A stretch of DNA of 28,501 nt, taken from positions 1 through 28,501 of IMG/VR virus record IMGVR_UViG_3300032216_000241; one strand, 5' to 3'. Shown piece by piece: positions 1,443 through 26,945 of the stretch. Each line of letters starts with the position of its first letter. Position 1 is the first letter of the stretch. Both the position numbers and the translations under genes were made by a program. The notes beneath the pieces were generated by a model. The model searched no databases. It had not been told where the DNA came from and worked only from the letters and a program-made list of their open reading frames with translations. This DNA comes from a virus (taxonomy: Duplodnaviria; Caudoviricetes).

Positions 1443-3938
1443 ATGGAATTCTATACAAGTGTAGTTCAATATGGTAGTAAGATGCTTGTGCGTGGTTACG
1501 ATACTAAAGGTAACCAATTTAAGCACAGAGTAGATTTCCAACCAACAATCTTTATCCCATCCAAGAATCCCACCGAATATAAAACTCTCGAAAACAAATT
1601 CGTTGCACCACTACAAGCTGGTTCGATGAAAGAAACTCGAGAGTATATTGATCGTTACAAAGAGATAGAGGGGTTTGAGATCTATGGTAACAATAACTTT
1701 GTTGCCCAATTCATCAGCGACAACTATCGAGAAGAGATTATTCCCGACACCGATAAGATTAAGATCTTCACGATCGATATCGAGACATCAACTGAAGAAG
1801 GTTTTCCAGACATTCAATCTGCCAATGAAGAGATTCTTCTCATCACTCTACAGGACAATAAAACTAAAAACATCGTAACTTTTGGTCGCAGACCTATCGG
1901 TGACGCTGGTGATGTTGACTATCGTTTGTATGAAAATGAAACGCAGATGCTGCGAGAGTTTCTAATTTACTGGCAAGATAACTGCCCAGATGTTGTAACT
2001 GGTTGGAATATTAACTTCTTTGATATCCCCTATCTTATTCGTAGGATTCAAAACCTTCTTGGTGAGTCTTTTGCCAAAAAGATGTCGCCATGGGATTTGA
2101 TATCTGAACGCAGAATTCAGATGAAGGGTAGCGAGGAATTAACATACGACATTCAAGGTGTTGCTATGTTGGATTACCTTGACCTGTATAAGAAATATAC
2201 CTATCAAGCACAGGAGTCGTATCGTCTTGACCATATCGCTTTTGTGGAGTTGGGAGACAAGAAACTAGACTACAGTGAGCATGGTTCATTTAAAGATTTC
2301 TATACTCAAGCATGGAAGAAGTTCGTAGCCTATAACATTCACGATGTGCAACTGGTTGACAAACTAGAAGACAAAATGAAGTTGATTGAGTTGCAATTGG
2401 TTATGGCTTACAATGCCAAGATTAACTATGAGGATGTCTTCAGTCAGGTTCGTATGTGGGATGCTATCATCTATAATCACCTACGAGATCGAGGTATTGT
2501 TATTCCGCAGAATTCTGGTAACAGAAAGTATGCGCAGTTTGAAGGTGCTTATGTTAAAGATCCTCTGGTTGGTTTGCATAAGTGGGTTGCTTCCTTTGAC
2601 TTGAACAGTTTGTATCCTCACTTGATTATGCAATACAACATTAGTCCCGAAATGATGTTGGAAGGAAGAGAGACAGTTACAGTTGATCATCTTCTTGAAC
2701 AGAAGTTTGACAACAGCGAGATCAAAGAACGAAATGTTTCTATGACTGCCAATGGTGTTTGTTATTCGAAAGACAAACAGGGGTTTATGCCCGAGTTGAT
2801 GCAAACGATGTATATTAACCGAAGCAAGTTCAAGAAGCAGATGTTGAAATTGCAACAGGAGTATGAGCACGACAAAACAAACAACAATCTCCGTAAAGAA
2901 ATCAGTCGGTTGAATAACCTACAGATGGCTATGAAGATTGCGTTGAACTCTGCTTATGGTGCGATGGGTAACCAATACTTCCGCTATTTTGATTTGCGCA
3001 TGGCAGAAGGTATTACGACTTCTGGTCAATTGTCTATTCGTTGGATGGCTAACAAGCTGAACGACTTTATGAACAAGACTTTGAAGACAACCAAAAGAAA
3101 AGACTTTGTCATCGCGATCGATACAGATTCTATTTACCTTACTCTTGAAACATTAGTTGAATCCGTTTGTGATGGTAAGACTGATGAACAAAAGATTAAA
3201 TACATGGATAAGATCTGTGAAGATATCTTCCAACCTTTCATTGACAAAGGTTACCAAGAGTTGGCGACCTATATGAATGCCTATGATCAGAAGATGCAGA
3301 TGAAACGAGAAGTCTTAGCTGACAAAGCAATTTGGACCGCCAAGAAACGATACATTATGAATGTTCATAACTCAGAAGGAGTTCAGTATGCAGAGCCTAA
3401 GATCAAGGTTATGGGTTTGGAAATGGTCAAGTCCTCTACACCTCAAGTTATTCGTAATAAACTTAAAGATTCGATCAAAGTTATTCTTGAAGGCGATCAG
3501 TCAAAGCTGCACCGCTACATACATTCGTTTAGAGATGAGTTTAACAAACTACCAGTTGAAGAAATTGCGTTCCCGAGATCAGTAAACGGATTAAAAGAGT
3601 ATGCTGCCTTTTCGACTATATACAGAAAGAGCACACCGATTCATGTTCGTGGTGCGTTGTTGTTGAATCACTATCTTAAACAAATGAATCTTGATCGTAA
3701 GTATCAACCTATTCGAGATGGTGATAAGATTAAGTTTGTTTATCTCAAAACACCAAACACAATTCAGGAAGATATTATTTCGTTCAGTCAAGAGTTACCA
3801 AAAGAATTAGACCTACATAAGTATGTGAACTATGAAAAACAATTCGAAAAGGTTTTCCTAGACGCACTACAAATTGTTATTGAACCATTGGGTTGGAAAG
3901 TAGAAGAGCATTCTTCACTGGAGGACTTCTTTGGATAA
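1443..3938 (+). CDS. 43: family B DNA polymerase (T4 gp43-like)
   Basis: DIET exonuclease motif, SFDLNSLYPH, KIALNSAYG, DTDS, KKRY; C-terminal clamp-binding SLEDFF. Confidence 0.97.
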   Translation: MEFYTSVVQYGSKMLVRGYDTKGNQFKHRVDFQPTIFIPSKNPTEYKTLENKFVAPLQAGSMKETREYIDRYKEIEGFEIYGNNNFVAQFISDNYREEIIPDTDKIKIFTIDIETSTEEGFPDIQSANEEILLITLQDNKTKNIVTFGRRPIGDAGDVDYRLYENETQMLREFLIYWQDNCPDVVTGWNINFFDIPYLIRRIQNLLGESFAKKMSPWDLISERRIQMKGSEELTYDIQGVAMLDYLDLYKKYTYQAQESYRLDHIAFVELGDKKLDYSEHGSFKDFYTQAWKKFVAYNIHDVQLVDKLEDKMKLIELQLVMAYNAKINYEDVFSQVRMWDAIIYNHLRDRGIVIPQNSGNRKYAQFEGAYVKDPLVGLHKWVASFDLNSLYPHLIMQYNISPEMMLEGRETVTVDHLLEQKFDNSEIKERNVSMTANGVCYSKDKQGFMPELMQTMYINRSKFKKQMLKLQQEYEHDKTNNNLRKEISRLNNLQMAMKIALNSAYGAMGNQYFRYFDLRMAEGITTSGQLSIRWMANKLNDFMNKTLKTTKRKDFVIAIDTDSIYLTLETLVESVCDGKTDEQKIKYMDKICEDIFQPFIDKGYQELATYMNAYDQKMQMKREVLADKAIWTAKKRYIMNVHNSEGVQYAEPKIKVMGLEMVKSSTPQVIRNKLKDSIKVILEGDQSKLHRYIHSFRDEFNKLPVEEIAFPRSVNGLKEYAAFSTIYRKSTPIHVRGALLLNHYLKQMNLDRKYQPIRDGDKIKFVYLKTPNTIQEDIISFSQELPKELDLHKYVNYEKQFEKVFLDALQIVIEPLGWKVEEHSSLEDFFG

Positions 3939-4482
3939 TATTAGAGTAATCAAAACTGGAATCAATGTTTCAAAGATTCTAAAACAACTACAACAATACA
4001 AAGAAGATTGGGGTGTCCAAAAACGAATGGAAGGTGTGAAAAATGTCCATGATGAATTTGGTTTCCCAGATATTTCTGCTGGTGTATTGCAACTGGTAAT
4101 GGGTGGTGTTGAGAAGGTTGGTGACTATGTAGGAGATACGGAAATATCTATACCAACCCCAGCATACAAAAAACATACAGAGATCGTTGGGTTCTTAAAA
4201 CGAAACTTCCACAATCATGCAAGATGCGGTTTCCTTTCACTACCTATTGGTGGCAAAGTTGGAAAACATATTGATATTGGGAGTTACTACCAAACCAAAG
4301 ATCGTTATCACCTGTCCATACAAGGAAGGTATAGATACTTTGTTGGAGACGAGCACTATGATGTTGAACCAGGAACTCTACTTTGGTTCAACAATAAGTT
4401 GGAACACGGAACTGAGAATCTTGCAGATTGCGTAAGGGTTACTTTTGTATTTGATGTTCCCCATCATAAGAAGAATCCGTGA
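3931..4482 (+). CDS. 2OG-Fe(II) oxygenase, aspartyl/asparaginyl beta-hydroxylase-like
   Basis: HxD (KHID)...RYHL...WFNNKLEH...RVTFVFD facial-triad pattern; TTG start with GGAGG upstream. Confidence 0.8.
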   Translation: MDNIRVIKTGINVSKILKQLQQYKEDWGVQKRMEGVKNVHDEFGFPDISAGVLQLVMGGVEKVGDYVGDTEISIPTPAYKKHTEIVGFLKRNFHNHARCGFLSLPIGGKVGKHIDIGSYYQTKDRYHLSIQGRYRYFVGDEHYDVEPGTLLWFNNKLEHGTENLADCVRVTFVFDVPHHKKNP

Positions 4483-5927: not shown

Positions 5928-7272
5928 TGAATATTGTAGAAAAGTAGTTCCCCATTTAAAGAAAGAATACTTTACTGATCGTAAAGAAGCGATGATCGTA
6001 GAATCATTGATCAACTTCTTTAATGAGTATAACATGACTGCCACACCAGAGATCTTAGCAATTGAGATCGGGAATAGAAAAGATCTTAATGATAAAGAAG
6101 TTCCAGAAATTGAAACCTATATTAACGAGTTGACCAGTAAGGAAACTAATTCGGATTGGTTGATTGGTGAAACAGAAAAGTTCTGTAAAGACAAGGCGGT
6201 TTATAATGCGATTCTTCACTCAATTAAAATTATTGACGGAGGTGATAAGAATCAAACCAAAGATGCAATTCCTTCTATCTTATCTGAAGCACTTGCTGTT
6301 TGCTTTGATAATCATATTGGTCATGACTATTTGGAAGACTTCGATGAGAGGTATGATTTTTATCATAGGGTGGAAGAGAAGATTGCATTCGACCTTGACC
6401 TCTTTAATAAAATCACTAAGGGTGGGCTTTCAAAGAAAACATTGAATGTAGTATTGGCTGGTACTGGGGTTGGTAAGTCTTTGTTTATGTGCCATGTGGC
6501 TGCATCTACCTTAATGCAAGGTAAGAATGTTCTTTACATTACTATGGAGATGGCAGAGGAAAGAATCGCAGAACGAATTGATGCGAATCTTATGAACATC
6601 GGTATGGATGAGTTGAAGGTAATTGATAAGTCTGTATTCGAATCAAGAGTATCGAAGGTAGCAAAGAAAACACAAGGTAAGTTAATCATCAAAGAGTATC
6701 CAACAGCTGGTGCTCATGCTGGTCACTTCCGTGCGTTATTGGAAGAACTAAAACTAAAACGAGAGTTTAAACCAGACATGGTCATTATCGACTATCTCAA
6801 TATTTGTTCTTCATCGCGAATGAAACAGGGAGCGAATGTAAACTCTTATACATATATTAAGTCGATAGCAGAAGAGTTAAGAGGATTGGCGGTTGAGATG
6901 GCAGTGCCGATTTTATCAGCAACCCAAACAACTAGATCTGGTTTCTCTAACACTGATGTTGAATTGACGGACACTTCTGAATCGTTTGGTTTACCTGCGA
7001 CAGTTGATTTTATGTTTGCTTTGATTAGTTCTGAAGAGTTGGAAGAACTTGGACAGTTGTTAGTTAAGCAGTTGAAGAATCGTTATGGTGATCCGTCTTA
7101 CTTCAAGAAGTTTGTAATTGGAGTTGACAGATCAAAGATGAAGTTGTATAATTTAGAATCATCAGCGCAGAAAGATATTTCAGAATCTGGTCAAGACATT
7201 GGTCCAGTTTTTGACAAATCAGATTTTGGTAAAAGAGTGAAGACGGAAGACTTCGAAGGATTCAAGTTTTAG
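5884..7272 (+). CDS. 41: replicative DnaB-like helicase (T4 gp41-like)
   Basis: LAGTGVGKS Walker A, YITMEMAEE, IIDYLNI, SATQTTR, TSESFGLPAT, KQLKNRY. Confidence 0.96.
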   Translation: MRIEKTILSNLIHNDEYCRKVVPHLKKEYFTDRKEAMIVESLINFFNEYNMTATPEILAIEIGNRKDLNDKEVPEIETYINELTSKETNSDWLIGETEKFCKDKAVYNAILHSIKIIDGGDKNQTKDAIPSILSEALAVCFDNHIGHDYLEDFDERYDFYHRVEEKIAFDLDLFNKITKGGLSKKTLNVVLAGTGVGKSLFMCHVAASTLMQGKNVLYITMEMAEERIAERIDANLMNIGMDELKVIDKSVFESRVSKVAKKTQGKLIIKEYPTAGAHAGHFRALLEELKLKREFKPDMVIIDYLNICSSSRMKQGANVNSYTYIKSIAEELRGLAVEMAVPILSATQTTRSGFSNTDVELTDTSESFGLPATVDFMFALISSEELEELGQLLVKQLKNRYGDPSYFKKFVIGVDRSKMKLYNLESSAQKDISESGQDIGPVFDKSDFGKRVKTEDFEGFKF

Positions 7273-7281
7273 GAGAATGAT

Positions 7282-8643
7282 ATGGTAAAAGTAATTGTAG
7301 CTGAAACCAAGCATGACTGTAATCATTTGCTTGGACAGTTTTTAGATGAGAGGCACTATGATGTTCTGGTTGAAGAAGATTGTGATGTTTATATGCCAGC
7401 CAATTCTGAATTGGCGACGCAAGCCAACGATTCAAATTCCTGTGAAACAGGTATCGATGAAAGACGAATTGTATTTAGATTTCGTAAAAACTACTTTACG
7501 AAAGAAGAACAAGAAATGGCTTATCAAGGGCTACGAGAAGCAGCAACGGTAACGCAGAATCGTGGTTTGGCTTCTGGTCCAAGAGAAGAGTCGCTCGGTG
7601 CAAGACACTGGGTTACTGATGAGCAATTTGATTTGCTTGAGTTTATGATGGAGCCAAAAGAAACTTTGACTGGTGAAGACGGCATTGATGAAATTCGTAG
7701 ACGCCACAGAGAGGGTAAGTACGAAGTTCCATCTCGTGGATATACTTGGTTGCAAAACAAAATTAATACCACTGGCAAAGTATTCAGTGGTGCTGCCAAA
7801 GGTTTTGTGTTTGATGAGTGGGTTGAAACAGTTCGTAAATTACCTAAACAACAAATGCAAGATGAAGCCAAACGAGTTGCTACTGATTTAATCTGCAATA
7901 CTACCTACGCTAACTCTGTATACTCTGGTATTGCTGGCTGGTTCGATCGTTATCCTCGTATCCCGTATGGTCGTGCAACTACTTATACAAGAGATAATCC
8001 AGATAAATTTGCTCTGGCTTATCCATTCTTACAACACTTGGCTAAAGGATTTAAAGATCTTCTGCCATGGCGTTATGCAAATCAAATGCGAGAAGCAGCA
8101 AAGTTGGATCCAGAATTCTTAGTTCCAGAAACTCCATTTACTACGATTACCGTAAACAAGACATTCCGTACTGCAGCACACTATGATGCTGGTGATTTAG
8201 ATAGTGGTTTATCTAATCTTCTTACGCTATCAAATGATGGTAACTACACTGGTGGATATTTGATTGCACCAGAGTATCGTGTTGCGGTAAATGTAAGACC
8301 TGGAGATTTGTTATTGATTAACAATCACGAAGTTATGCATGGCAATACTCCGATTGTATGTGCAGAAGGTTCTGAACGAGTTTCTTTGGTTGTTTACTTC
8401 CGTGAGAAGATGCTTGAGTTGGGTAGCAAAGCGTATGAAGATATTCGTATGAATTTTGTTCAAGATCGTAAAGATAATAAAGAGCATCCAAATCAGAAAC
8501 CATTATGGAATGGTGTTACCGAAGGTATGTGGCAATCTCAAGAATGGAAAGACTATCTGATTGACAAGGGTGGTTTGGAAATGGCTAAGAAATATGAGGC
8601 AAATCTTATGGAAGAAAAATCTTCCTTGGAGGAGTTCTTTTAA
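7282..8643 (+). CDS. TET/JBP-family 2OG-Fe(II) nucleic-acid base dioxygenase
   Basis: FTTITVNK...TAAHYDAGD (HxD)...GDLLL...MHGNTP (H)...ERVSLVVYFRE (Rx5a), the signature layout of TET/JBP oxygenase domains. Confidence 0.85.
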   Translation: MVKVIVAETKHDCNHLLGQFLDERHYDVLVEEDCDVYMPANSELATQANDSNSCETGIDERRIVFRFRKNYFTKEEQEMAYQGLREAATVTQNRGLASGPREESLGARHWVTDEQFDLLEFMMEPKETLTGEDGIDEIRRRHREGKYEVPSRGYTWLQNKINTTGKVFSGAAKGFVFDEWVETVRKLPKQQMQDEAKRVATDLICNTTYANSVYSGIAGWFDRYPRIPYGRATTYTRDNPDKFALAYPFLQHLAKGFKDLLPWRYANQMREAAKLDPEFLVPETPFTTITVNKTFRTAAHYDAGDLDSGLSNLLTLSNDGNYTGGYLIAPEYRVAVNVRPGDLLLINNHEVMHGNTPIVCAEGSERVSLVVYFREKMLELGSKAYEDIRMNFVQDRKDNKEHPNQKPLWNGVTEGMWQSQEWKDYLIDKGGLEMAKKYEANLMEEKSSLEEFF

Positions 8644-9338
8644 TGTGCGCAATTATCGGTGCGTTCATTCAGAACCCTTCATTAGAAGATTTTGAAAGTT
8701 TAAAACGAGTATTCCTTGAGTCTAGAATTCGAGGTATGCACGCAACAGGCATTTCATTCCTTCCTAGTTGGAGTGATAAAGTTATAACGATTAAAGATTC
8801 AATTCCTGCAGATGAGTTTATTAGTATTCATATGCATAATGATAATTTGAAGGAGATGATAAATGCTGACAATAATCTTTACCTTATTGGTCACTGTAGA
8901 TATAGCACTAGCGATTTATTGTATAACCAGCCGATAGCAAATGATAAACACTCTATTGTTCACAATGGAGTTATTACACAAGAGTTGCCTGAGAATTGGG
9001 ATAAGATTTTTGCATACAAATGTGAAACAAAGAACGACTCAGAGTTGGTCTTGCATTCAGGTTCGCCATTGGAAGAATTTCCAGATGCATCGATGGCTGT
9101 TTGTGAATTGACGAGTGATAAAAAATTATTGTTTTATCGCAATGGAAAACGACCATTGTGGTTGTCTCAAATAGCGAATGGGTATATAATTACCTCTACG
9201 GCAGACATTCCACAAAGGGCTGGATTTACAACTCTGACTGGTCAGGTTCAGAAAGACACATATTGCACTGTCTATCCAGATGGTGCGATTATGTTTGAGA
9301 AAGTTGACAACAATACGAAGGATTTACAGAATGTATAA
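8643..9338 (+). CDS. class II (Ntn) glutamine amidotransferase
   Basis: N-terminal MC nucleophile, RGMHATG, GHCRYST, NQP, HNG, NDSE, RPLW; TAATG coupled to the oxygenase. Confidence 0.88.
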   Translation: MCAIIGAFIQNPSLEDFESLKRVFLESRIRGMHATGISFLPSWSDKVITIKDSIPADEFISIHMHNDNLKEMINADNNLYLIGHCRYSTSDLLYNQPIANDKHSIVHNGVITQELPENWDKIFAYKCETKNDSELVLHSGSPLEEFPDASMAVCELTSDKKLLFYRNGKRPLWLSQIANGYIITSTADIPQRAGFTTLTGQVQKDTYCTVYPDGAIMFEKVDNNTKDLQNV

Positions 9339-10299
9339 TGTGAATGTTTGGAGTTATGGAGTAGAGTTAGAGTATGGAGATAGTTATCGCTTCTGCGAGT
9401 TACCTGAAGGTGCTCAGTGGAATGATAAAGATAATACCTGCGTAAGCACTACTGGTATTGCTAATGACCCAGACGGCAAACTCTACAAGTATGGTGGTGA
9501 GATTAACACTAAGCCAACCTACTCAATTGAAGATCAGATTGAACACATTAAAGCTATCAACGAAACTCTTTGCCCTGCTCCAGTCATAAACTATCGTAGC
9601 AATCTTCACATCCATATTCGTGTACCAAACTTACATAATGATCTAGATTCTTGTAAGAAACTACTCCGTTATGTAGATCGTTATCAACAACAGGCATTTG
9701 ATATTGTCGAAACAATTCCTGTTCCAGATAAGAATACTTTATCGCCAGAGGTATACGAGTGGGCACTCAAACGAATGAAGCGTAGACATAAAAGTCACCA
9801 AAACAAACTTCCAAAATCAAGAGTGGAAGCAATGTTGTCTTCAAACACAACTCAGGAGTTTTTTGAGAACCATGCGCACAAAGATGCTAAGGGTAATCCT
9901 GCTTGGTTCCAATGCCCTCGTGCTGGTATCAATCTGCGACAAATGTGGGAAGAAACAAACACAATTGAGTTTCGTCACTTTCCAGGAACAACAGACATGG
10001 TTGAAATGGAATCGTGCATTCGTTGGTGTAGAGAGTTTCTTAACGCTGCATTGAATCGTGATGATGTCTCGCCAGCAGAGTTTTATACTGAGCAAACATA
10101 TCAGTTTCCAGACTTTCAACCATACGAGTATGAAACCGAACAGATTTATCAGTGGACCAACTTTGATACCAATACAAAAAAAGATATTACCAAACGATTG
10201 GAATCACTAAGAGAACAGATTGATATCGATGCAATCGGATCAGTTACCTCTAAAATGATTTTCCCGATTATGCGTCAACTACAGGAACAAGGTCTATGA
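9331..10299 (+). CDS. putative amidoligase (COOH-NH2 ligase, glutamine synthetase-like fold)
   Basis: YGVELEY, GGEINT, NLHIHI, R-x-x-IN, TIEFRHFPGT motifs; start reassigned to ATG 9331. Confidence 0.78.
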   Translation: MYNVNVWSYGVELEYGDSYRFCELPEGAQWNDKDNTCVSTTGIANDPDGKLYKYGGEINTKPTYSIEDQIEHIKAINETLCPAPVINYRSNLHIHIRVPNLHNDLDSCKKLLRYVDRYQQQAFDIVETIPVPDKNTLSPEVYEWALKRMKRRHKSHQNKLPKSRVEAMLSSNTTQEFFENHAHKDAKGNPAWFQCPRAGINLRQMWEETNTIEFRHFPGTTDMVEMESCIRWCREFLNAALNRDDVSPAEFYTEQTYQFPDFQPYEYETEQIYQWTNFDTNTKKDITKRLESLREQIDIDAIGSVTSKMIFPIMRQLQEQGL

Positions 10300-10733
10300 A
10301 GGTATTGTTTGTATGTCATGGTAACATTAACCGCAGTGCTGCTGGCGAGATTATGCTTAAGCAAATCAAACCAGAATGGGAAGTTAAATCTGCTGCACTG
10401 AAAGATACAAAGGGTGGTGAAAGAACTGCCAAGAAAATGCGTGAAACATTAGTTGATGCTGGGTATCTAGGAGAGATTCGTTCAACTCCGATTAGTCAGG
10501 AATTGGTTGATTGGGCTGATGTTATCTTTTACATGGACGATAGCAACCACAACAAACTCAAAGACAAATTCGGTGATTCCGTATTTGAGAAAGCGATTCG
10601 TATTAGCAATTATGTTTCTGGTGTAACAAAGATTCCAGATCCAAACTTTGCTAAGGGAACTGAGATGCACAAGGAAGTTATTAAATTATTAGAAATCGCT
10701 TTATACAAATACATCAATGAGCAAACAGTATAG
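10296..10733 (+). CDS. low-molecular-weight protein-tyrosine-phosphatase/ArsC-fold phosphatase
   Basis: KVLFVCHGNINRS (CX5R P-loop), WADVIFYMD, IPDP general acid. Confidence 0.88.
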   Translation: MKVLFVCHGNINRSAAGEIMLKQIKPEWEVKSAALKDTKGGERTAKKMRETLVDAGYLGEIRSTPISQELVDWADVIFYMDDSNHNKLKDKFGDSVFEKAIRISNYVSGVTKIPDPNFAKGTEMHKEVIKLLEIALYKYINEQTV

Positions 10734-11394
10734 ACAACAAATGGGGTTTAGTCGTAAAGATGAATTCCATAAGTGGGTTTCTTGTAAAGATATTATTATC
10801 CCAAACTGGCCATTGGTTGAAACGAGAAACGAAAGACTGGTAGAAGTCTTCACCAAGATTAACGAACAACTACCAATTAAGTATGAAGGTAACATTGGAG
10901 ATGATATCTGGAAATGTTACAACTCAGTAAAGGCTAACAACCTACTTCCCAAAATGCGTAATCAAGGTAGAGCAATGGAGCAAGTATATCTTACTTGGCT
11001 TATTGGCTACATGGCAGAGAAAGTATTCACTCCATTTATTGTTGATAAATTGATATTGAGTGGGTTGGAAAGAAATGGTGGCGATGACTTATCAAGCATC
11101 GATACTTTTAAAAGAACTGGCGCAGCAGACTTGGTTGACACTAAAACAAATATCTTTATTGATGTTCAGTGCGGTACTGGAGAAGGTGTTGCTACTATTA
11201 AGAAGCACAAAGTAGATCAAGCACTAAAGGTAGGTGGTACTACCTATGCCTGTATGTTTGGTTTGTTTACTGGAACATACGGTATAGTAAATTTGAATGA
11301 GTTGAAAGACGCAGAGTTTTATAAAAACGAAAGTTGGGAGAATGCCCTTTGTTGGGATGTTCCCTCCGACATATTTAAGAACTGGTATGTTTGA
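10717..11394 (+). CDS. hypothetical protein, possible PD-(D/E)XK restriction-endonuclease-fold nuclease
   Basis: GYMAEKVF...GGDD...ADL...FIDVQ spacing resembles an E...D...(D/E)xQ variant active site; function inferred. Confidence 0.5.
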   Translation: MSKQYRQQMGFSRKDEFHKWVSCKDIIIPNWPLVETRNERLVEVFTKINEQLPIKYEGNIGDDIWKCYNSVKANNLLPKMRNQGRAMEQVYLTWLIGYMAEKVFTPFIVDKLILSGLERNGGDDLSSIDTFKRTGAADLVDTKTNIFIDVQCGTGEGVATIKKHKVDQALKVGGTTYACMFGLFTGTYGIVNLNELKDAEFYKNESWENALCWDVPSDIFKNWYV

Positions 11395-12409
11395 TTATAG
11401 ATTGAAAGAAAATAGCAGAGAAGCGTTCATTCGCTGGTTTGCTTGGTCTGTTGAATATAAAGATTGTGATCCTGCAGTATGGATGACTAACTACATCAAC
11501 GATCGTTATGAACATAATGATGAACAGCGTCTATGGCTTTGTTGGTTGTATGGTAATACTTATCACCTACCAACTGCTTGGGTTCTTATGAACGAGTTTC
11601 CAGACTTTGAGTTGGCTACCGTAGATAGAATAGAACAGTGGAATACTGCCAACTATCAACGACTAAGGTATCAAACTGACACGAAGTGGAACAAGGGACA
11701 CCTCCCAACAATGTTTGCTTCATATAAAGAATTTATTGGAAATACAACGCAACGAGAAGCACTAGAAAGTTACTATGGATTATCAGAGGAAACAAATTTT
11801 GAAAACCTGTGGACTGGCGTTAAGTCTGGCTTGCATAAGTTTGGTCGTTATTCCACTTGGTTTTATCTTCAGCATCTTAAGCATACTGGTAATATTCTTA
11901 TTAGCCCCACTTCTCTCATGCTGGACGATTATTCTGGCAGTCGCTCTCATCGTAATGGATTACTATTGGCCATTGGCAGACCTGACGATATGGATCGAAA
12001 ACTCACTGAACAAGAGTATCGAGATCTTGAGGTTCAGTCTATGGCAATTTTGGAGGAAACTCGATTAAGGTTTCCACACCTTACCCACTCGCTAGACTTC
12101 TTTACTATGGAAACCTGCCTATGTTCCTTTAAAAAGATCTTCCGTGAACGAGAAGGTAGATATCTTGGTTACTATTTGGATCGCCAGTCTGAGGAGATTA
12201 AAAAAGTATCAGCCGATGGTTGGTATGGTATTGAGTGGGAAGTTCTATGGCAAGCCAGAGCCGAAACCTTAGACCAAAGACTTGCAACCAGAGATAATAT
12301 TGCAAAAGAAAAGTTTCCTTTTTTCCTGAATACTGGTAAAATAGATCGTATGGAATGGATGTTTGAGGATGAAGAACCTATGAAAATTGGATTGGAGATG
12401 TTTCAATGA
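11387..12409 (+). CDS. aGPT-PPlase / amino acid:DNA transferase family (HhH-glycosylase fold)
   Basis: DCDP, KFGRYSTWFYLQHL helix-hairpin-helix segment, METCLCSFKK and RYLGYYLDR; adjacent P-loop kinase; start reassigned to ATG 11387. Confidence 0.75.
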   Translation: MFDYRLKENSREAFIRWFAWSVEYKDCDPAVWMTNYINDRYEHNDEQRLWLCWLYGNTYHLPTAWVLMNEFPDFELATVDRIEQWNTANYQRLRYQTDTKWNKGHLPTMFASYKEFIGNTTQREALESYYGLSEETNFENLWTGVKSGLHKFGRYSTWFYLQHLKHTGNILISPTSLMLDDYSGSRSHRNGLLLAIGRPDDMDRKLTEQEYRDLEVQSMAILEETRLRFPHLTHSLDFFTMETCLCSFKKIFREREGRYLGYYLDRQSEEIKKVSADGWYGIEWEVLWQARAETLDQRLATRDNIAKEKFPFFLNTGKIDRMEWMFEDEEPMKIGLEMFQ

Positions 12410-12945
12410 GAAAAATTGTTGCCGTTGGTGGAGTTCCAGGAACAGGGAAAACTACCCTATTCCGAAAGTTTATGGAGAATCTTGAGTGGGAAAGAATGGA
12501 GCCAGTTAAGATGCTTCCGATGCTTTACAACAAGGAACACGATCTTTATATCCTTGGAAAGTACGAAGACGGAGAAACCTTTGCTGGGACAGATCGCCTT
12601 TCTATGGCAGTTCAGCCTATCGCCCAAGAGTTCGTAAGTACTTGCTCCTCTAATATCCTATTCGAAGGGGATAGAATTTTTAATCAATCCTTTTTAGAGT
12701 TCGCATCCAGCCTAAATAATGTAGAGTTGCAAATTGTTTATTTGAAGGCTCCCCAATCTATCCTTGAACAGAGATATGCCGATCGTGGATCGGATCAATC
12801 TGAAACATTTCTTAAGGGAAGAGCCACCAAATACAATAACATACTATCTTCATTCGATTTGATGTCCTATATTACTGAGTTCAATAACACTAACTTAGAG
12901 GAGCAGGGAAAGGTATTGAAGTTTCTGGAGTGCCAGCTACTGTAA
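12406..12945 (+). CDS. P-loop nucleotide kinase of DNA hypermodification clusters (candidate 5-hydroxymethylpyrimidine DNA kinase)
   Basis: GGVPGTGKTT Walker A, LGKY, GTDRLS, LFEGDR, lid R...RG; ATGA overlap with the transferase. Confidence 0.78.
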   Translation: MRKIVAVGGVPGTGKTTLFRKFMENLEWERMEPVKMLPMLYNKEHDLYILGKYEDGETFAGTDRLSMAVQPIAQEFVSTCSSNILFEGDRIFNQSFLEFASSLNNVELQIVYLKAPQSILEQRYADRGSDQSETFLKGRATKYNNILSSFDLMSYITEFNNTNLEEQGKVLKFLECQLL

Positions 12946-12957: not shown

Positions 12958-13647
12958 ATGAAATATCTGCAAAGTTTAGATTTCGATTTTATAGAGATGC
13001 TTGACTTTGAGCAGAGACCCTTTCGTGCTAAATTTATCCCTTCTAAGATTTGGACTGATTTAGACAAATACAAAAACGACGCCACTGGCTTGAGAAACTA
13101 TTTCAAGAAGTGGCGTTTTCGCATTAACTGGCACTATGAATCTAAACCAACAAAGCATGTAGCTGTTGGTGGTGGGTATTGGCCAGACAAAGAATATTCT
13201 GAACTGGACATTTGGTGTAGTCCCGAAACAGATTATAATCACTATGAGTTTACTGATGCTTCTTGGACTAGATTTAAGTACAGAGTTATTCAAGTAGCAA
13301 TGCATGAGTTGATCCACTGTAAGCAATACTACGGTAAAGATGAAGACTACTGCGCCAGCAAAGTTTACTACGCTAGAACTGGCATCAAACGAATAGACGA
13401 TACTAGAGAATACCATGCTGGTAGAGATGAGATTGAAGCATATGCCCACTGCGTATATCTAGACTTTAAAACCAAACGACCAAGCATTGCAGTTGCCGAG
13501 TTGATTCGTTACGCTAGAACCTATAAGGTATCAAAAAACCTTTCTGGGATCCAAAGGATCTTTAGAACAGATCGTCACAATGAAGTTATCCCTCTCCTAC
13601 TACGCAAAATCCTAGTCTGGGAAAGAAAATATAATCGCTATTCGTAA
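12958..13647 (+). CDS. putative zincin metallopeptidase
   Basis: AMHELIHCKQ (HExxH) with downstream EIEAYA third ligand. Confidence 0.65.
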   Translation: MKYLQSLDFDFIEMLDFEQRPFRAKFIPSKIWTDLDKYKNDATGLRNYFKKWRFRINWHYESKPTKHVAVGGGYWPDKEYSELDIWCSPETDYNHYEFTDASWTRFKYRVIQVAMHELIHCKQYYGKDEDYCASKVYYARTGIKRIDDTREYHAGRDEIEAYAHCVYLDFKTKRPSIAVAELIRYARTYKVSKNLSGIQRIFRTDRHNEVIPLLLRKILVWERKYNRYS

Positions 13648-15024: not shown

Positions 15025-16236
15025 ATGAAATCGTTCCAAACCTATCTTAAAGAAGAAACCGAAACAGGGCAGAAGCTGAAACACATTGCTCACCCAGAAG
15101 ATCGTCCATTAATGCATGGACACGAAGGTTTCGAGCATGCCCATGCTGCCCTTATGCAAGCCCATGCTCATATGAAAGCTGGCCATAAGTCTAGCAACCT
15201 TACTATGAAATATGATGGTTCACCAGCTATCGTTTTCGGACACCACCCAAAGACTAAAAAGTTCTTTGTTTCCACAAAATCTATCGGTAACAAAGATCCA
15301 AAGATTAACTATAGCCATGCTGATGTTGAAAAGAATCACGGACATGCTCCTGGACTCGCAAAGAAATTACATACTGCTTTAGATCATTTACCAAAGGTCG
15401 CACCAAAAGAAGGTGTTTACCATGGCGACTTAATGCATACTCACGATGATCATAAGATTCACGAGTCTGTTCTTATGGAAGCAAAGGGTGATGTTTCCTT
15501 TACTCCAAACACTATCACCTATACTGCCAAAGGTGATGATGCAAAGAAGGTTAAGAAGTCTAAGATTGGTGTAGTTGTCCACCAACAATATCACGGTAAA
15601 GACACAGAGAGTTTAACTGCTTCTCCTCATCCAGATCTCAGTAAGTTTAAAGAACATCCAGATGTTCATATGCATGGTGCTGAGCATGACACTAGCAAGG
15701 TAACTCACTCTGCTGAGAACGAAGCTGGTTTCCACAAGCACATGGCTGCTGCAAAAGAGATCCATGACACTCATGGTCATAAAATGTATAATGCGATTCA
15801 CCCAAAACACTCTGGTGAATCGGGGCATCTTTCTACTTATGTTAACAGCACAGTTAAGAACGATACAGTTCCAAATGTAAAAGATTTACAAGCGCATGTA
15901 AAAGCGCATCACGATAAGAAAGCTGCTGGTGTTTCTACTGAGAAAGCAAAAGCTACACATACTGCTGAAGGCAATTCTCAGGTTGCTCATATCGAAAAGA
16001 ATAAAGCGCACTACGGTAATCTCTTGTCTATGCACCATCACTTGGCTCAAGCAAAGAACCACTTGGTTAGTTCTCTTGAAACTCACGAAGGTCGTTACGA
16101 GCACCACATTGATGGTAAGAAGTCTAAGCCAGAAGGTTTCGTTGTTAATACAGAACATGGTCCAAACAAATTGGTTAATCGTTCTGAGTTTGCAAAAGCC
16201 AATCTATTAAAACCAAAGAGAGTTGCTCCAAAATGA
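15025..16236 (+). CDS. DUF6267-like protein with ATP-dependent ligase/nucleotidyltransferase motifs; His-rich, capsid-targeting-like N-terminus
   Basis: KYDGSP (motif I KxDG), YHGDLM (III), PEGFVV (IV), KLVNR (V); N-terminus MKSFQTYLKEE. Confidence 0.65.
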   Translation: MKSFQTYLKEETETGQKLKHIAHPEDRPLMHGHEGFEHAHAALMQAHAHMKAGHKSSNLTMKYDGSPAIVFGHHPKTKKFFVSTKSIGNKDPKINYSHADVEKNHGHAPGLAKKLHTALDHLPKVAPKEGVYHGDLMHTHDDHKIHESVLMEAKGDVSFTPNTITYTAKGDDAKKVKKSKIGVVVHQQYHGKDTESLTASPHPDLSKFKEHPDVHMHGAEHDTSKVTHSAENEAGFHKHMAAAKEIHDTHGHKMYNAIHPKHSGESGHLSTYVNSTVKNDTVPNVKDLQAHVKAHHDKKAAGVSTEKAKATHTAEGNSQVAHIEKNKAHYGNLLSMHHHLAQAKNHLVSSLETHEGRYEHHIDGKKSKPEGFVVNTEHGPNKLVNRSEFAKANLLKPKRVAPK

Positions 16237-16850
16237 TTTCGTTTTCTGAATTCTTAGAAGAAACAAAAAAGACAGGCTGCACCTGTTGGACTGGATACAA
16301 ACGCAAGCCAGGAACTAAGCCATGCTCACCTGGATCTTGCGTCAAAGAAGAAACAGAATTGAAGGAAGAACATATCGTTCATGTCGATGATGGTAGTAAC
16401 TATGGTGATAAACCTCACGACAAAGATGTTGAACATGTAATGTCTGGTGTTAAAAAACATAATGGTGAGTTTGATGGACACTCAGACAAAGGTGCTTATT
16501 TTAAATTCAAATCACAGTCTGACGCAAGAAATTTTGCAGACCATGTAAAGCGTTCTCCTCATAAAACAGTGCACGCAGACCTTCACGAAGCAGCAACTGC
16601 TGATGCTAAAGGTTACAAATCATCAACTGGTGGTTTGACTCAAAAGGGTCGTGATCATTTCAATGCACAATCTGGCGGACATCTAAAAGCACCAGTAACA
16701 ACTCCTCCATCAAAGTTGAGTCCTGGTAGCAAAGCAGCAAATCGTCGTAAGTCTTTTTGTGCTAGAATGTCTGGTATGGAAGGTCCAATGAAGAAACCAA
16801 ATGGCGAGCCAAGTCGTAAAGCACTCGCTCTAAGAAAGTGGAATTGCTAA
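16233..16850 (+). CDS. modular probable internal head protein with C-terminal DUF6321-like domain
   Basis: MISFSEFLEE start, CWTGY...CVKEE module, GGLTQKGR...RRKSFCARM...ALRKWNC domain. Confidence 0.6.
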   Translation: MISFSEFLEETKKTGCTCWTGYKRKPGTKPCSPGSCVKEETELKEEHIVHVDDGSNYGDKPHDKDVEHVMSGVKKHNGEFDGHSDKGAYFKFKSQSDARNFADHVKRSPHKTVHADLHEAATADAKGYKSSTGGLTQKGRDHFNAQSGGHLKAPVTTPPSKLSPGSKAANRRKSFCARMSGMEGPMKKPNGEPSRKALALRKWNC

Positions 16851-17497
16851 TGTTATCATTTAAAGATTTTATTCTAGAAGAACTTGGTGGAAAAGAGAAG
16901 ACAGATAAATCTGTTAGTCTTAAATCCAAAGTGATTGCGTTTGGTCGCATGAATCCACCAACTGCTGGTCATGAGCAGGTTGTTAATAAAGTTCGTGAAA
17001 TTGCTAAGAAAGAACATGCTACTCATGCTGTTATTCTTTCACACTCACATGACGCAAAGAAAAACCCTTTATCTCCAGAGAGCAAGGTTAAGCATGCTAA
17101 GAATGCATTTCCTGGAACTCATATAGAAGCTGCATCTAAAGAAGCACCAACTATTCTACATCATGCTGCCAAAGCACATGCTGCTGGCGTTCAACATCTA
17201 CATGTTGTTGCTGGTTCTGATCGTAAAGAAGCCATGCATGATCTATTACACAAATATAATGGTGTAAAGGCTAGTCATGGTCACTATAAATTTAAGTCAA
17301 TTACGGTACATTCTTCTGGTGACAGAGATCCTGATTCAGACGAGGGAACTGCTGGAGTATCTGGCACCAAAATGCGTGCCCATGCTGGTTCAGGTAACAA
17401 AACTGAGTTCCACAAAAACCTGCCTAGCAAGATGAAACCAGAACATAAAGATGCTTTATACAATGATGTCCGAAAAGGAATGGGACATAAAGATTAG
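16850..17497 (+). CDS. HIGH-superfamily (cytidylyltransferase-like) nucleotidyltransferase
   Basis: FGRMNPPTAGH (TxGH), KNPL, VAGSDR, RDPD, SGTKMR; ATG 16850 by TAATG coupling. Confidence 0.8.
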   Translation: MLSFKDFILEELGGKEKTDKSVSLKSKVIAFGRMNPPTAGHEQVVNKVREIAKKEHATHAVILSHSHDAKKNPLSPESKVKHAKNAFPGTHIEAASKEAPTILHHAAKAHAAGVQHLHVVAGSDRKEAMHDLLHKYNGVKASHGHYKFKSITVHSSGDRDPDSDEGTAGVSGTKMRAHAGSGNKTEFHKNLPSKMKPEHKDALYNDVRKGMGHKD

Positions 17498-17502
17498 TAT
17501 TC

Positions 17503-17509
17503 CTAAATA
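17503..17509 (+). promoter_or_regulatory. putative late promoter CTAAATA
   Basis: Intergenic CCTAAATA upstream of ATG 17539. Confidence 0.55.
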
Positions 17510-17538
17510 GTTAAATATATTTTTATAGATGGGTCAAA

Positions 17539-19347: not shown

Positions 19348-19352
19348 TCGAG

Positions 19353-19360
19353 AATAAATA
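19353..19360 (+). promoter_or_regulatory. putative late promoter AATAAATA
   Basis: NATAAATA in the short intergenic gap, 5 nt before the Dps ATG. Confidence 0.5.
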
Positions 19361-19365
19361 TACTA

Positions 19366-25227: not shown

Positions 25228-26262
25228 ATGCTACATATTGATACCAAATACGCATCTCTTCTAAATACCCGACTTCGCAACTTTACAAAGAAGAATGATT
25301 TTCTTTGGAACTACAGTTGCCCAGTATGCGGTGACAGCAAGAATAATCCTCGCAAGGCAAGAGGGTTCATCTACAAACATAAACAAGATCTCTTGGTTAA
25401 ATGCCATAAGTGTGGGTATAGCACAAACCTTGGAAACCTAATCAAATATGTAGATACAAACATGTATGATGAGTATGTGATTGAACGATACAAGAGTGGT
25501 GCAACTCGATACAACGACCATAAAGAGATTGGTCAATATATTCCAGAAGTATCGCCTATCGATACTAACGATATACATTTAGAAGATGATGTTCTGGATT
25601 CTCTAAATCGCATCGACAAGATGCCTGAATTGCATCCAGCAGTTCAATATGTAGCCAAACGAAACATCCCAAAGGACAAGTGGAATCTACTTTACTTTGC
25701 TCCAAAGTTTAAAACATACACAAATACAATTACACCTAAGTTTCAAGAACCAATTAAGGATGAACATCCAAGGTTGGTAATCCCTTACTTCAATTCGCAT
25801 GGTAAGGTAATTGCCTTTCAAGGAAGGGCATTCGGTAGCGAAGAGCCTAAGTATTATACCATCAAGATTGATGAAGATGAGGAGAAGATCTATGGATTGG
25901 AACGAATCGACTATGCAAGAAGAATATATGTGGTGGAGGGACCACTTGACTCTCTTTTTCTTCCAAACGCAATCGCTGTATCAGGAAGTAGTTTTGATAC
26001 CCCTACTATTAGGAAGTTGCTTACTAACGCAACAATAGTAATGGACAATGAACCTCGTTCAGTAGAAATTACAAAACAGTTGTCGAAGTATATTGATAAA
26101 GGGTATAATGTAGTGATGTATCCAGATACGATTAAAGAGAAGGATATCAATGAAATGGTTTTAGCTGGACGATCTCCTGCCCAAATTCTAGAATTGATAA
26201 ATACCAATACCTTCACAGGAATGGAAGCAAAGTTGAAATTTTCAGAATGGAGAAAATGTTGA
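25228..26262 (+). CDS. 61: DNA primase (T4 gp61-like)
   Basis: CPVCGDS...CHKCG zinc finger, RLVIP, FQGR, KYYT, VVEGPLDSLF and DNE TOPRIM motifs, KDINEM. Confidence 0.95.
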   Translation: MLHIDTKYASLLNTRLRNFTKKNDFLWNYSCPVCGDSKNNPRKARGFIYKHKQDLLVKCHKCGYSTNLGNLIKYVDTNMYDEYVIERYKSGATRYNDHKEIGQYIPEVSPIDTNDIHLEDDVLDSLNRIDKMPELHPAVQYVAKRNIPKDKWNLLYFAPKFKTYTNTITPKFQEPIKDEHPRLVIPYFNSHGKVIAFQGRAFGSEEPKYYTIKIDEDEEKIYGLERIDYARRIYVVEGPLDSLFLPNAIAVSGSSFDTPTIRKLLTNATIVMDNEPRSVEITKQLSKYIDKGYNVVMYPDTIKEKDINEMVLAGRSPAQILELINTNTFTGMEAKLKFSEWRKC

Positions 26263-26945
26263 AAGTAAAGTTAATTAGTTATAGCACTCCCTCCAAAGAG
26301 ATGTATGAAGAAGGTTTAGAGAATGTTCAAGAATTGATTGGCTTCTGCGCAAGGGTTTCTAATCCCAGCAACCAATTAAACACAGATACATCAGACAAGT
26401 TAATTCGGTATCTAGTAAAGCATAAGCATTGGTCTCCACTAGAGATGGTGTCTGCTTGTTTAGAAATCGAAACGACTAGAGATATAGCAAGACAAATCTT
26501 GCGACACAGAAGTTTTAGCTTCCAAGAATTCAGTCAGCGATATGCTGATCCAACAAAGGATTTAGATTTCGTATTAAGAGAAGCAAGACGACAAGATACC
26601 AAAAATAGACAAAACAGTATAGAGTTGGATATTCAAAACGACAATGCGGATCGTTTCCTAGCCTACCAATGGGAACAAATGCAACAAAAAGTTTTAGATG
26701 CAGCCAAGTCAGCATATACATGGGCTATCGATAGTGGTATAGCAAAAGAACAGGCGAGGGCAGTTCTGCCAGAGGGATTAACAGTCTCTCGCCTTTATAT
26801 GAATGGTACTCTGCGCAGTTGGATTCATTTCATTGAATTACGCAGCGCAAATGGAACACAAAAAGAGCATCAGATGATAGCAAAAGAATGTGCTAAAGTT
26901 ATTACAAGCATTTTCCCTCTTGCTTCTGAATTTGTAGAACAATAA
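26256..26945 (+). CDS. thyX: flavin-dependent thymidylate synthase
   Basis: HWSPLE, RQILRHRSFSFQEFSQRY (RHRx7S), EQARAVLP, LR...TQKEH; GGAG upstream of ATG 26256. Confidence 0.95.
   Translation: MLKVKLISYSTPSKEMYEEGLENVQELIGFCARVSNPSNQLNTDTSDKLIRYLVKHKHWSPLEMVSACLEIETTRDIARQILRHRSFSFQEFSQRYADPTKDLDFVLREARRQDTKNRQNSIELDIQNDNADRFLAYQWEQMQQKVLDAAKSAYTWAIDSGIAKEQARAVLPEGLTVSRLYMNGTLRSWIHFIELRSANGTQKEHQMIAKECAKVITSIFPLASEFVEQ

Follow-up and report, generated by a model that had tools for sequence, protein, structure and literature searches.

Clade C1 T-dioxygenases lie in gene neighbourhoods in which a TET/JBP oxygenase is linked to a glutamine amidotransferase (GATase), a P-loop kinase and an amino acid:DNA transferase (AADT), as described in the available parts of PMC13229309 and PMC8256090. 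Those clade C1 oxygenases that lack ParB displayed no detectable activity in the E. coli assays covered by the accessible text of PMC13229309. In its available portion, Lee et al. 2021 (Fig. 2; PMC8989533) presents metavirome contigs that combine TET_JBP, 5-HMUDK and aGPT-Pplase2 with an amidoligase/glutamidotransferase, and proposes that these contigs hypermodify thymine hydroxylated in DNA. Phage PaMx11 makes 5-acetylaminomethyl-dU by a different route. According to the accessible sections of the sources, 5-hmdU is incorporated from nucleotides and the amine arrives via glycine and an FAD enzyme (PMC8989533, PMC11472151); gp47 makes 5-aminomethyl-dU (PMC8989533), and gp48, a GNAT, is the 5-aminomethyl-dU acetyltransferase (PMC8989533, PMC11472151).

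The window, that is, the whole stretch of 28,501 nucleotides analysed here, is a 28.5-kb fragment, and gene absences were therefore judged on relatives. Its cassette contains the same families as the clade C1 neighbourhoods (O'Toole et al. 2026; Burke et al. 2021) and, like them, has no nearby C5-methyltransferase. It departs from them in the size of its oxygenase (453 aa long, where the tested C1 enzymes have about 250-330 aa), in a long insertion, a clamp-like tail and an amidoligase-phosphatase module, and in its lack of ParB; the terms 'amidoligase', 'phosphatase' and 'LMWPc' do not occur in 12 supplements of PMC13229309. In the available text of PMC8989533 the amidoligase/amidotransferase is given no function and no phosphatase module is seen, whereas a phosphatase is present in the window. 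With the PaMx11 pathway the cassette shares kinase activation, the AADT fold and an E-T-x-x-C motif, and we infer that a 5-aminomethyl-dU intermediate followed by an acyl cap is common to both. Unlike in PaMx11, an oxygenase would supply the hydroxyl here, glutamine the amine, and the amidoligase and phosphatase the cap. The preliminary description of the locus had spoken of a candidate new pathway. This was overstated in that the family linkage had already been predicted (PMC8989533, PMC13229309), but no characterised product was found in the available parts of the literature searched. Cassettes of this kind are in print as predictions, and neither the ammonia route nor the final base turned up in those same parts.

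In the pathway proposed here, the oxygenase would convert T to 5-hydroxymethyl-U on finished DNA, the kinase would phosphorylate it, and a complex of GATase and AADT would exchange the phosphate for glutamine-derived ammonia to give 5-aminomethyl-dU. The amidoligase would then use a phosphorylated acid to acylate the amine, and removal of the phosphate from the acyl group by the phosphatase would come last. That the cassette serves thymine hypermodification of some kind is very likely. The ammonia route to 5-aminomethyl-dU is quite probable, and acylation of its amine by the amidoligase is held with the same degree of confidence; for trimming of the acyl group by the phosphatase the chances are equal either way. 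The scheme as a whole (ammonia-fed, acyl-capped, on finished DNA) is judged moderately probable.

Gene order and core enzymes

The cassette is formed by seven consecutive ORFs, all on the + strand and with no internal stops. As initially described, it starts 9 nt past the helicase (stop ending at 7272, oxygenase ATG at 7282), and the ORF coordinates confirm that each gene runs into the next, with successive overlaps of 1, 8, 4, 17, 8 and 4 nt. Six of the seven proteins exceed curated Pfam cut-offs with their catalytic residues intact. The order TET-GATase-(module)-AADT-kinase is repeated in IMG/VR relatives, taken from the best 80 of 449 AADT stretches and the best 80 of 310 TET stretches, and this recurrence indicates that the arrangement is not due to chance. 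A putative sigma-70 promoter-like site (7124..7152, + strand; 12/12 consensus matches, 17-nt spacer) lies in the 3'-terminal part of the helicase gene and precedes the oxygenase by about 130 nt. The promoter scan overall gave 20 sites against 24.8 expected, and only the perfect match is notable. The site scores 12/12 in 10 of 66 relatives and at least 10 in 44 of them, and its consensus is largely dictated by the helicase protein sequence.

The first ORF (7282..8643, 453 aa) encodes a TET/JBP-family Fe/2OG dioxygenase, the assignment originally given to it, with a PF12851 (Tet_JBP) match of 81.7 bits against a cut-off of 34.9. The iron/2OG residues of its HxD...H...R motif (H300, D302, H353, R366) are at least 97% conserved in 118 sequences. 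Its motifs and C-terminal extension are clade-C1-like when compared by eye with published C1 sequences, and it is likely to be a thymine dioxygenase. The enzyme also contains a variable insertion of 119 aa (105-119 aa across the set); by eye, an insertion this long is absent from the tested C1 enzymes, which counts against the explanation favoured here. Genome content was sampled in five relatives, three of them 100% complete. ParB (PF02195) was detected in none of the five, nor in the cassette; a 428-aa ORF that appears ParB-like by eye is present in 11 of 98 loci and has no PF02195 match. ThyX thymidylate synthase (26247..26945 in the window, + strand; PF02511, 153.8 bits) was found in all five, while ThyA/hydroxymethylase (PF00303) and C5-methyltransferase (PF00145) were found in none, the positive controls having matched. 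With ThyX the phage makes ordinary dTMP, which is consistent with modification after replication.

The AADT (aGPT-PPlase2; 11387..12409, 340 aa) matches PF18724 (ADDT) at 76.9 bits (cut-off 26.2), in agreement with the family proposed for it at the outset, and in its catalytic E242-T243-x-x-C246, where Glu and Thr would be the metal ligands, E242, T243 and C246 are kept in 94 of 94 sequences. The top Foldseek matches to its AlphaFold model (pLDDT 88.9) are the helical PaMx11 gp46 (8z2n/8z2m; probability 1.00, TM 0.52-0.62), at E values of 0.026-0.04 that, being above 0.001, are weak. The kinase (Ploopntkinase3; 12406..12945, 179 aa; PF18751, 32.1 bits, cut-off 27) has its Walker A at residues 9-16 and is likely a 5-hmdU-DNA kinase. 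It lies downstream of the AADT in 86 of 98 loci, the remainder of which may include truncated loci, and four AADT-kinase fusions occur. A helical kinase partner (HMUDK_hel) is present in phage Simon, discussed below, and was not detected among 17 window proteins scanned. The earlier suggestion that thymine would be oxidised after replication, phosphorylated and then substituted by the AADT draws support from the profile matches and the Foldseek match to gp46.

In phage T4, the gp45 clamp is bound by the gp43 tail and by a loop of the ligase (PMC6212786). Alpha-glucosyltransferase also co-purifies with gp45, which sets a precedent for a DNA-modifying enzyme at the clamp, and glucosylation levels in T4 do not depend chiefly on clamp contact (PMC13216743). 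Like T4 gp43, the oxygenase and AADT end in a short hydrophobic polymerase-like peptide, known from sequence. The internal reference was the T4-like family B DNA polymerase (1443..3938, + strand), itself named from its sequence alone. By a pattern that was relaxed after a first look at the locus data, the tail was found on 27 of 28 polymerases, 105 of 119 TET, 105 of 118 AADT and 44 of 44 GNAT219 proteins, and on no helicase (82), UvsX (66), GATase (112) or kinase (102); the amidoligase, phosphatase, GATase and kinase of the window have none. gp45 itself is encoded by all five relatives. On balance, the oxygenase and AADT are probably tethered to gp45 by these tails, which may stand in for ParB.

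Proposed capping modules and phage Simon

Three mutually exclusive capping modules are found in these loci: a GNAT; an amidoligase with a GNAT; and the window type, an amidoligase with a phosphatase. No column of the AADT alignment is diagnostic of a module, and the pocket of the enzyme stays unchanged from one module to another (94 sequences); on the AADT tree the modules require 16 changes, where the minimum would be 2. This pocket invariance and these module changes fit a single intermediate with swappable caps. The window amidoligase (Amidoligase_2, a COOH-NH2 ligase; 9331..10299, 322 aa, or 339 aa from an upstream ATG at 9280) matches PF12224 at 29 bits (cut-off 22), and a sequence comparison gave no relative of solved structure; E12, E14, E57, H93, H95, R197, E213 and R215, residues of the kind that bind metal and ATP in this family, are invariant in 36 of 36 sequences. 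In Vibrio phage 2.275.O a more distant homolog adjoins QueF, the enzyme that produces an aminomethyl base. The phosphatase (10296..10733, 145 aa; PF01451 (LMWPc), 63.4 bits, cut-off 23.2) is of the LMW-PTP fold and aligns to solved LMW-PTPs at E 2e-10. It has a C-x5-R-S P-loop and a general acid (C7, R13, S14, D115); of 120 homologs, 119 retain the P-loop motif with C7 and R13, and all 120 have the DP motif of the general acid. Thioredoxin-coupled arsenate reductase (ArsC) uses three redox cysteines, and the single cysteine of the phosphatase makes such an activity unlikely (TIGR02691, 23.1 vs 174.3 bits).

The phosphatase follows the window-type amidoligase in 30 of 32 cases, the other two being cut by contig ends, and follows the other amidoligase subfamily in 0 of 33. 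These counts bear on an alternative in which 5-aminomethyl-dU is acylated, but glutamate or another ordinary acid is the donor and leftover 5-phosphomethyl-U is what the phosphatase acts on, either as clean-up or to free hydroxyls for a glycosyltransferase. Glutamine-synthetase-fold ligases usually activate glutamate, which favours such a donor, and a phosphatase-AADT fusion (P0145) and optional glycosyltransferases that include the TET-associated PF20691 would suit such a phosphatase. However, a clean-up enzyme should suit every module, whereas this one keeps to a single amidoligase subfamily, also in the unrelated phage Simon, and more than 30 fixed alignment columns set the two subfamilies apart; this alternative is considered unlikely. 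Glycosyltransferases of two unrelated types lie between GATase and AADT in 16 of 29 amidoligase-phosphatase loci and in 0 of 69 others, counts that are confounded by the sampling of more distant phages for this module. Such an association would be predicted for a phosphatase that exposes a hydroxyl.

Phage Simon (PQ683277.1, an unverified and unannotated record with no host given) is syntenic with PaMx11 gp45-47 and gp49-53 at 28-51% identity. Its FAD enzyme is 41.6% identical to gp47, and its AADT keeps W146/K150/K248/Y257 and is of the glycine type. In the slot of PaMx11 gp48 stand, side by side, an amidoligase (39.7% identity; 255.7 bits with the window-type profile from this analysis) and a phosphatase (34.5%; 82.6 bits). 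No GNAT was found in Simon, the PaMx11 positive control being detected; the window-type GATase had no match in a search run without a positive control, and TET had none in the cluster region. Simon differs from the window in its PaMx11-like genome, thymidylate-synthase-like gene, glycine-type AADT and FAD enzyme, and resembles it in the amidoligase-phosphatase pair within a thymine hypermodification cluster; no characterised product of the Simon cluster came up in the literature searched. The presence of this pair in the gp48 slot without a GATase match supports a 5-aminomethyl-dU intermediate. As a small deposited genome, Simon also allows the amidoligase-phosphatase step to be separated from the oxygenase.

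The ORF that follows the phosphatase (10717..11394, 225 aa) is PD-(D/E)XK nuclease-like by its ESM Atlas neighbours, a cluster named 'restriction endonuclease' (0.96) and, as no more than a lead, PDDEXK_14 (0.89); neither Pfam nor PHROG gave it a family, and its two NCBIfam rows are at chance level. D138, D149 and Q151 are invariant in 13 sequences. The preliminary description had counted this nuclease in the pathway, to which it probably does not belong, since it occurs in 9 of 98 loci and in 0 of 29 other amidoligase-phosphatase loci. It always lies directly before the AADT, a slot filled by other endonuclease-like ORFs in other relatives, and it is probably a mobile passenger.

The amidotransferase as predicted partner of the AADT

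The GATase (8643..9338, 231 aa; GATase_6, 30.1 bits, cut-off 27) is a class II (Ntn) glutamine amidotransferase whose nearest solved relatives are PurF and GlmS. C2, R86, N108, G109 and D132 are invariant in 38 of 38 sequences, and the N-terminal Cys, Arg, Asn-Gly and Asp presumably have the roles assigned from GlmS/PurF. Of the TET loci with AADT in view, 86 of 86 contain a GATase, against 0 of 9 with another enzyme after TET; AADT is out of view in 22. GATase-AADT fusions account for 11 of 151 proteins in a search whose query was itself a fusion, and an independent GATase-profile search gave five AADT fusions among 20 longer proteins, others of which join GATase to GNAT219 (2) or to amidoligases (2). 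The AADT is further fused to kinase, TET and phosphatase. As both proteins have other fusion partners, fusion alone speaks for a shared pathway and not for a channel.

The modelled complex of AADT and GATase scored 0.89 in three runs, with at least 95% of contacts in agreement and partner pLDDT of 90-91, and the best of three controls scored 0.00. The mark for this score was attained by 116 of 157 solved complexes, against 2 of 215 mismatched pairs, counts that are only approximate with the present alignments. The predicted interface covers the active-site face of the GATase and is enriched in conserved residues on the side of both the GATase (20/31 vs 46/200, p 8e-6) and the AADT (18/26 vs 150/314, p 0.04). 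The GATase is thus predicted to be the ammonia-supplying subunit of the AADT, and co-occurrence, fusions and predicted docking together point to ammonia transfer giving 5-aminomethyl-dU.

The preliminary description had instead paired the GATase with the amidoligase, as enzymes that amidate the adduct or make the donor. In an order built on that pairing, the AADT would add an amino acid (e.g. glutamate), the GATase would feed ammonia to the amidoligase for amidation of the amino acid's carboxyl, and a leftover phosphate would be trimmed by the phosphatase. The two genes adjoin and are fused in the two proteins mentioned, and all characterised AADTs in the available parts of the cited literature use amino acids or diamines. 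The glycine-binding residues of gp46 are W146, K150 and K248 (PMC11472151, PMC13458397), and Y257 is its glycine-carboxylate ligand. By sequence alignment rather than superposition, and with the region around gp46 residues 47-97 unreliable, W146/K150/K248/Y257 correspond to Y155/F159/S247/Y259 in the window. The one residue of four that is kept, Y259, leaves room for an amino-acid donor, as does a Lys near the pocket, four residues past the catalytic Cys and shared with an Ackermannviridae enzyme. However, the three glycine-binding residues are replaced, the GATase is kept without any amidoligase in 38 of 98 GATase-AADT loci, the amidoligase is kept in Simon without a match to the window GATase, and in the model the GATase active-site face docks on the AADT. 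The proposed pairing is therefore probably wrong, and the amino-acid-first order is rather improbable.

Purpose and significance

Ammonia-fed, acyl-capped modification of DNA remains the preferred reading over one in which the amidoligase and phosphatase have small molecules or targets other than DNA as substrates, for donor synthesis or for modifying the cell envelope or proteins, and only travel with the cassette, or in which an inactive oxygenase leaves the DNA unmodified; such a reading can appeal to the lack of a clamp tail on both enzymes, to distant GATases in other gene contexts in many Pseudomonas phages and to the inactive ParB-less C1 oxygenases reported in the accessible text of PMC13229309, but it is very improbable, given that the pair takes the place which the acetyltransferase has in a characterised DNA pathway, that pair and GNAT modules exclude each other in 98 of 98 loci, and that every catalytic residue is conserved across dozens of sequences.

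By analogy, the purpose of the modification is likely protection from host nucleases. More tentatively, the locus may encode a glutamine-dependent two-subunit DNA aminotransferase, in which the GATase channels ammonia into the AADT on double-stranded DNA, with 5-aminomethyl-dU as a hub for interchangeable caps. In this fuller but doubtful version, the amidoligase and phosphatase would install a hydroxy-acyl amide from a phosphorylated metabolite, yielding an undescribed base open to further glycosylation, and the pathway would ride the replication clamp in place of ParB.

In the available parts of published work, GATases and amidoligases beside TET/AADT clusters are assigned no role; here a concrete order of steps is proposed, with masses predicted for the intermediate (257 u) and for the GNAT-only module (299 u). 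The clamp tails suggest a testable explanation for the apparent inactivity of ParB-less clade C1 oxygenases in E. coli, and an enzyme pair that installs an amine on DNA could serve for labelling. If the proposal is true, an amidotransferase and an ATP-dependent ligase would be added to the enzymes that act on DNA bases, and an abundant group of uncultured T4-like phages would carry a new natural base.

Cassette genes and putative capping modules

The window carries T4-like replication genes in its 28,501 bases, and 9 nt past the helicase stop begins the run of seven mutually overlapping + strand ORFs reported in the preliminary description (7282–12945; overlaps 1, 8, 4, 17, 8 and 4 nt). Six of the seven pass Pfam cut-offs: a TET/JBP oxygenase (TET, 7282; Tet_JBP, 81.7 bits; catalytic H300/D302/H353/R366 intact), a GATase (8643; GATase_6, 30.1 bits; C2/R86/N108/G109/D132 intact), an amidoligase (9331; Amidoligase_2, 29 bits; E12/E14/E57/H93/E213/R215 intact), a phosphatase (10296; LMWPc, 63.4 bits; C7/R13/D115 intact), an amino acid:DNA transferase (AADT, 11387; ADDT, 76.9 bits; E242/T243/C246 intact) and a kinase (12406; Ploopntkinase3, 32.1 bits). 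The families first proposed for TET and AADT are thus borne out by profile, and for AADT also by fold: the top three matches of its AlphaFold model (pLDDT 88.9) are all PaMx11 gp46 (probability 1.00, TM 0.52–0.62), with weak E-values (0.026–0.04). Elsewhere, a second oxygenase-like gene lies between polymerase and UvsX (3931–4482; Asp_Arg_Hydrox, 27.4 bits), and the region downstream of the cassette at 15025–19821 encodes DUF6267, two cytidylyltransferase-like proteins and a Dps/ferritin. A 229-aa ORF with an HExxH motif and no family match (12958–13647) also stands 3' of the cassette in most relatives, and is a flanking gene because it is present whichever cassette type precedes it.

Scans of IMG/VR returned 449 stretches for AADT and 310 for TET, of which the best 80 of each were used, and phosphatase and amidoligase queries added 26 and 41 loci. 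GATase and AADT were both called in 131 loci, 98 of them non-identical. Among the matches listed, each of the 98 holds exactly one putative capping module between GATase and AADT: a 219-aa GNAT (GNAT219, 38 loci), a distant amidoligase with a 184-aa GNAT (GNAT184, 31), or a window-type amidoligase with a phosphatase (29); these counts are not frequencies, the window's module being 2 of 71 in the set queried with AADT and TET. In 30 of 32 cases the phosphatase comes after the window-type amidoligase (the other two end at a contig edge), and in 33 of 33 the other subfamily is followed by the GNAT.

The remaining cassette ORF (10717–11394) has no family match and endonuclease-like neighbours in the Atlas. 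Among the matches listed it occurs in 9 of the 98 loci, all with the GNAT-only module, and in two near-copies of the window; it is always immediately 5' of AADT, a slot filled by other endonuclease-like ORFs in other relatives. The nuclease, earlier counted as a pathway member, is on these grounds probably a passenger.

The relatives vary further. A radical SAM gene (491 aa; L074:1785-3260) stands between AADT and kinase in seven loci, and a 138-aa family without Pfam match (L015:1781-2197; 77 ORFs), not found in the window, takes that position in many relatives. Some cassettes hold additional 2OG-Fe(II) oxygenases. Eight TET loci (e.g. L117:11320-12327, L090:9872-10327) have no GATase-AADT-kinase set; in its place behind the helicase they carry 335-aa glycosyltransferase-like and 151-aa HAD-like ORFs (by eye; no Pfam match). 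A further arrangement (L121:1946-2977, L123:6126-6968, L120) lacks GATase and combines TET and a kinase with a 343-aa ORF that ends in a clamp-like tail and with a divergent AADT (ADDT 22.5 bits, below cut-off). In a relative with the window's module, a 255-aa membrane protein directly follows the kinase (L166:9057-9824); by eye it looks PmoC/AmoC-like, a hint that this phage infects a methanotroph or a nitrifier.

Likely substrate of the oxygenase and putative clamp tails

Because ThyX is found in five of five relatives (three of them 100% complete, those three without the window's module), while ThyA or hydroxymethylase, C5-methyltransferase and ParB are found in none of the five by searches whose positive controls were detected, thymine in finished DNA is the likely substrate. 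The variable insertion of TET is 105–119 aa long (115 of 117 relatives measured, and the window). By eye the enzyme resembles clade C1 of PMC13229309, although the clade members tested there have an insertion two to three times shorter. As far as the accessible text of that paper goes, clade C1 enzymes oxidise T, one subclass is linked to GATases, P-loop kinases and AADTs, and the ParB-less members tested had no detectable activity; the window cassette falls outside the ParB-dependent subclass. Full-length homologs of the long TET in phages DLP-6, Cr30 and S-CBWM1 (L156, L157, L159) are annotated 'SNF2 DNA repair protein'. A 428-aa ORF with a GIY-YIG-like N-terminus and a ParB-like middle (L076:8718-10004; by eye, no Pfam match) lies immediately 5' of AADT in 11 of 98 loci, all with the amidoligase and GNAT module.

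A tail of the form Leu-(Glu/Asp/Asn)-x-Phe at the extreme C-terminus, loosened from a stricter pattern that gave 67 TETs and 15 AADTs, ends 27 of 28 polymerases, 105 of 119 TETs, 105 of 118 AADTs, 44 of 44 GNAT219 and 14 of 33 GNAT184 proteins, and 7 of 475 unassigned ORFs. It ends none of the helicases (82), UvsX proteins (66), GATases (112), amidoligases (31 and 32 in the two subfamilies), phosphatases (30) or kinases (102). The T4-type clamp gp45 is encoded in all five relatives. In T4, gp43 uses a tail of this type to bind gp45 (PMC6212786), and the alpha-glucosyltransferase purifies together with gp45 (PMC13216743), according to the portions of these papers available. We infer that the clamp may stand in for ParB.

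Probable destination of the ammonia

Four lines, namely co-occurrence, fusions, a complex model and replaced glycine ligands, point to AADT as the destination of the ammonia. Among the matches listed for 117 non-identical TET loci, GATase is present in 86 of 86 with AADT in view and in none of nine with a different enzyme after TET (22 are uninformative). P0121 is a GATase-AADT fusion, and both domains occur in 11 of 151 proteins from its search, a query that itself favours such fusions. An independent GATase-profile search gave 20 longer proteins: five are fused to AADT, two to GNAT and two to amidoligase, and the remaining 11 have no further cassette domain; fusion of GATase is not exclusive to AADT, since the GNAT and amidoligase fusions also occur. 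In P0253, P0260, P0207, P0190 and P0240, AADT is joined to other partners: TET in two of them, and otherwise a PLP-enzyme-like domain, a kinase (1278 aa for the whole protein) or an intein containing an HNH domain.

The AADT-GATase model scores 0.89 in three runs and the best control 0.00; at least 95% of contacts agree between runs, with partner pLDDT 90–91. Of 157 solved complexes 116 attained that mark, as did 2 of 215 mismatched pairs; with the alignments used here these figures are only approximate. The model supports the predicted binding of GATase to AADT; no solved complex of the two was found, though the domain packing of PurF and GlmS could inform the model. The predicted interface is enriched in conserved residues and takes in the active-site face of GATase, including Y87, whose equivalent lines the ammonia channel in GlmS and PurF. 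Three GATase-free AADTs match 3–5 of 18 conserved interface residues and ten fused AADTs 8–11, a modest contrast given the higher overall identity of the fused proteins. Residues W146, K150 and K248 of gp46, glycine-binding in the accessible parts of PMC11472151 and PMC13458397, are Y155, F159 and S247 in the window AADT, with Y257 kept; the enzyme is not of the glycine-type subclass.

No alignment column of AADT is diagnostic of the module, and across 94 sequences its pocket residues show little or no variation. Its FastTree tree calls for 16 module changes, against a minimum of 2 and a mean of 43.9 after shuffling. This fits a single common intermediate with interchangeable caps.

Proposed capping of the amine and what is new

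Only two GenBank phages match the window amidoligase. Phage Simon (PQ683277.1), an unverified record with neither annotation nor a stated host, is syntenic with PaMx11 gp45-47 and gp49-53 (28–51% identity); its AADT is of the glycine type, and its FAD enzyme shares 41.6% identity with gp47. No gp48 counterpart lies in the region, its slot holding amidoligase, phosphatase and one nuclease-like ORF (L216:4864-12543). The whole record gave no match to GNAT (PaMx11 control positive) or, in a search without positive control, to the window-type GATase. In PaMx11, 5-aminomethyl-dU is the product of gp47 and is acetylated by gp48 (PMC8989533, from the part available). On the simplest reading of these gene orders, amidoligase and phosphatase would cap 5-aminomethyl-dU without requiring GATase, which with AADT would be the other way to the amine. 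The window cassette would work like the PaMx11 pathway. The Simon cluster is a PaMx11-like thymine hypermodification cluster that may give this deposited phage a new base. In Vibrio phage 2.275.O (MG592671.1; L217:7887-13095) the amidoligase homolog lies immediately ahead of QueF among deazaguanine genes; GTP cyclohydrolase, an Ntn hydrolase and a queuosine biosynthesis gene are also present, and the group may specify an acylated 7-aminomethyl-7-deazaguanine. This again places the homolog near an aminomethyl base, a weaker hint to such a substrate.

The phosphatase is an intact LMW-PTP with a single cysteine, is tied to one amidoligase subfamily and is fused to AADT once (P0145). Among the matches listed, 16 of 29 amidoligase-phosphatase loci and 0 of 69 others have glycosyltransferases (two types in all) in the stretch from GATase to AADT; the window has none there. 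The amidoligase may attach a phosphorylated acid, the phosphatase then uncovering a hydroxyl; the main rival is that the phosphatase cleans up 5-phosphomethyl-U. By calculated mass, a product carrying a glycoloyl group (315 u) or a glyceroyl group (345 u) would be isomeric with the known bases GlyT and O-SerT, respectively.

The cassette is real, as first described, and its kind has already been published as a prediction (PMC8989533 and PMC13229309, as partly available), so that the pathway is not new as a class: PMC8989533 describes contigs that encode TET_JBP together with kinase and AADT, and notes associated amidoligases and amidotransferases to which it assigns no role. In the literature covered, which included few subscription journals and excluded published gene-neighbourhood figures that may contain this architecture (Lee Fig. 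2; O'Toole Figs 3, S4), the accessible text gave no ammonia route, GATase-AADT complex, amidoligase-phosphatase module or clamp tails on these enzymes. The present analysis adds a step order backed by evidence, and a way of testing it. The whole case for an ammonia-channelling complex and a new base is tentative, and we lean somewhat against it; if true, the cassette would yield a base new to nature's described set via a glutamine-fed AADT.
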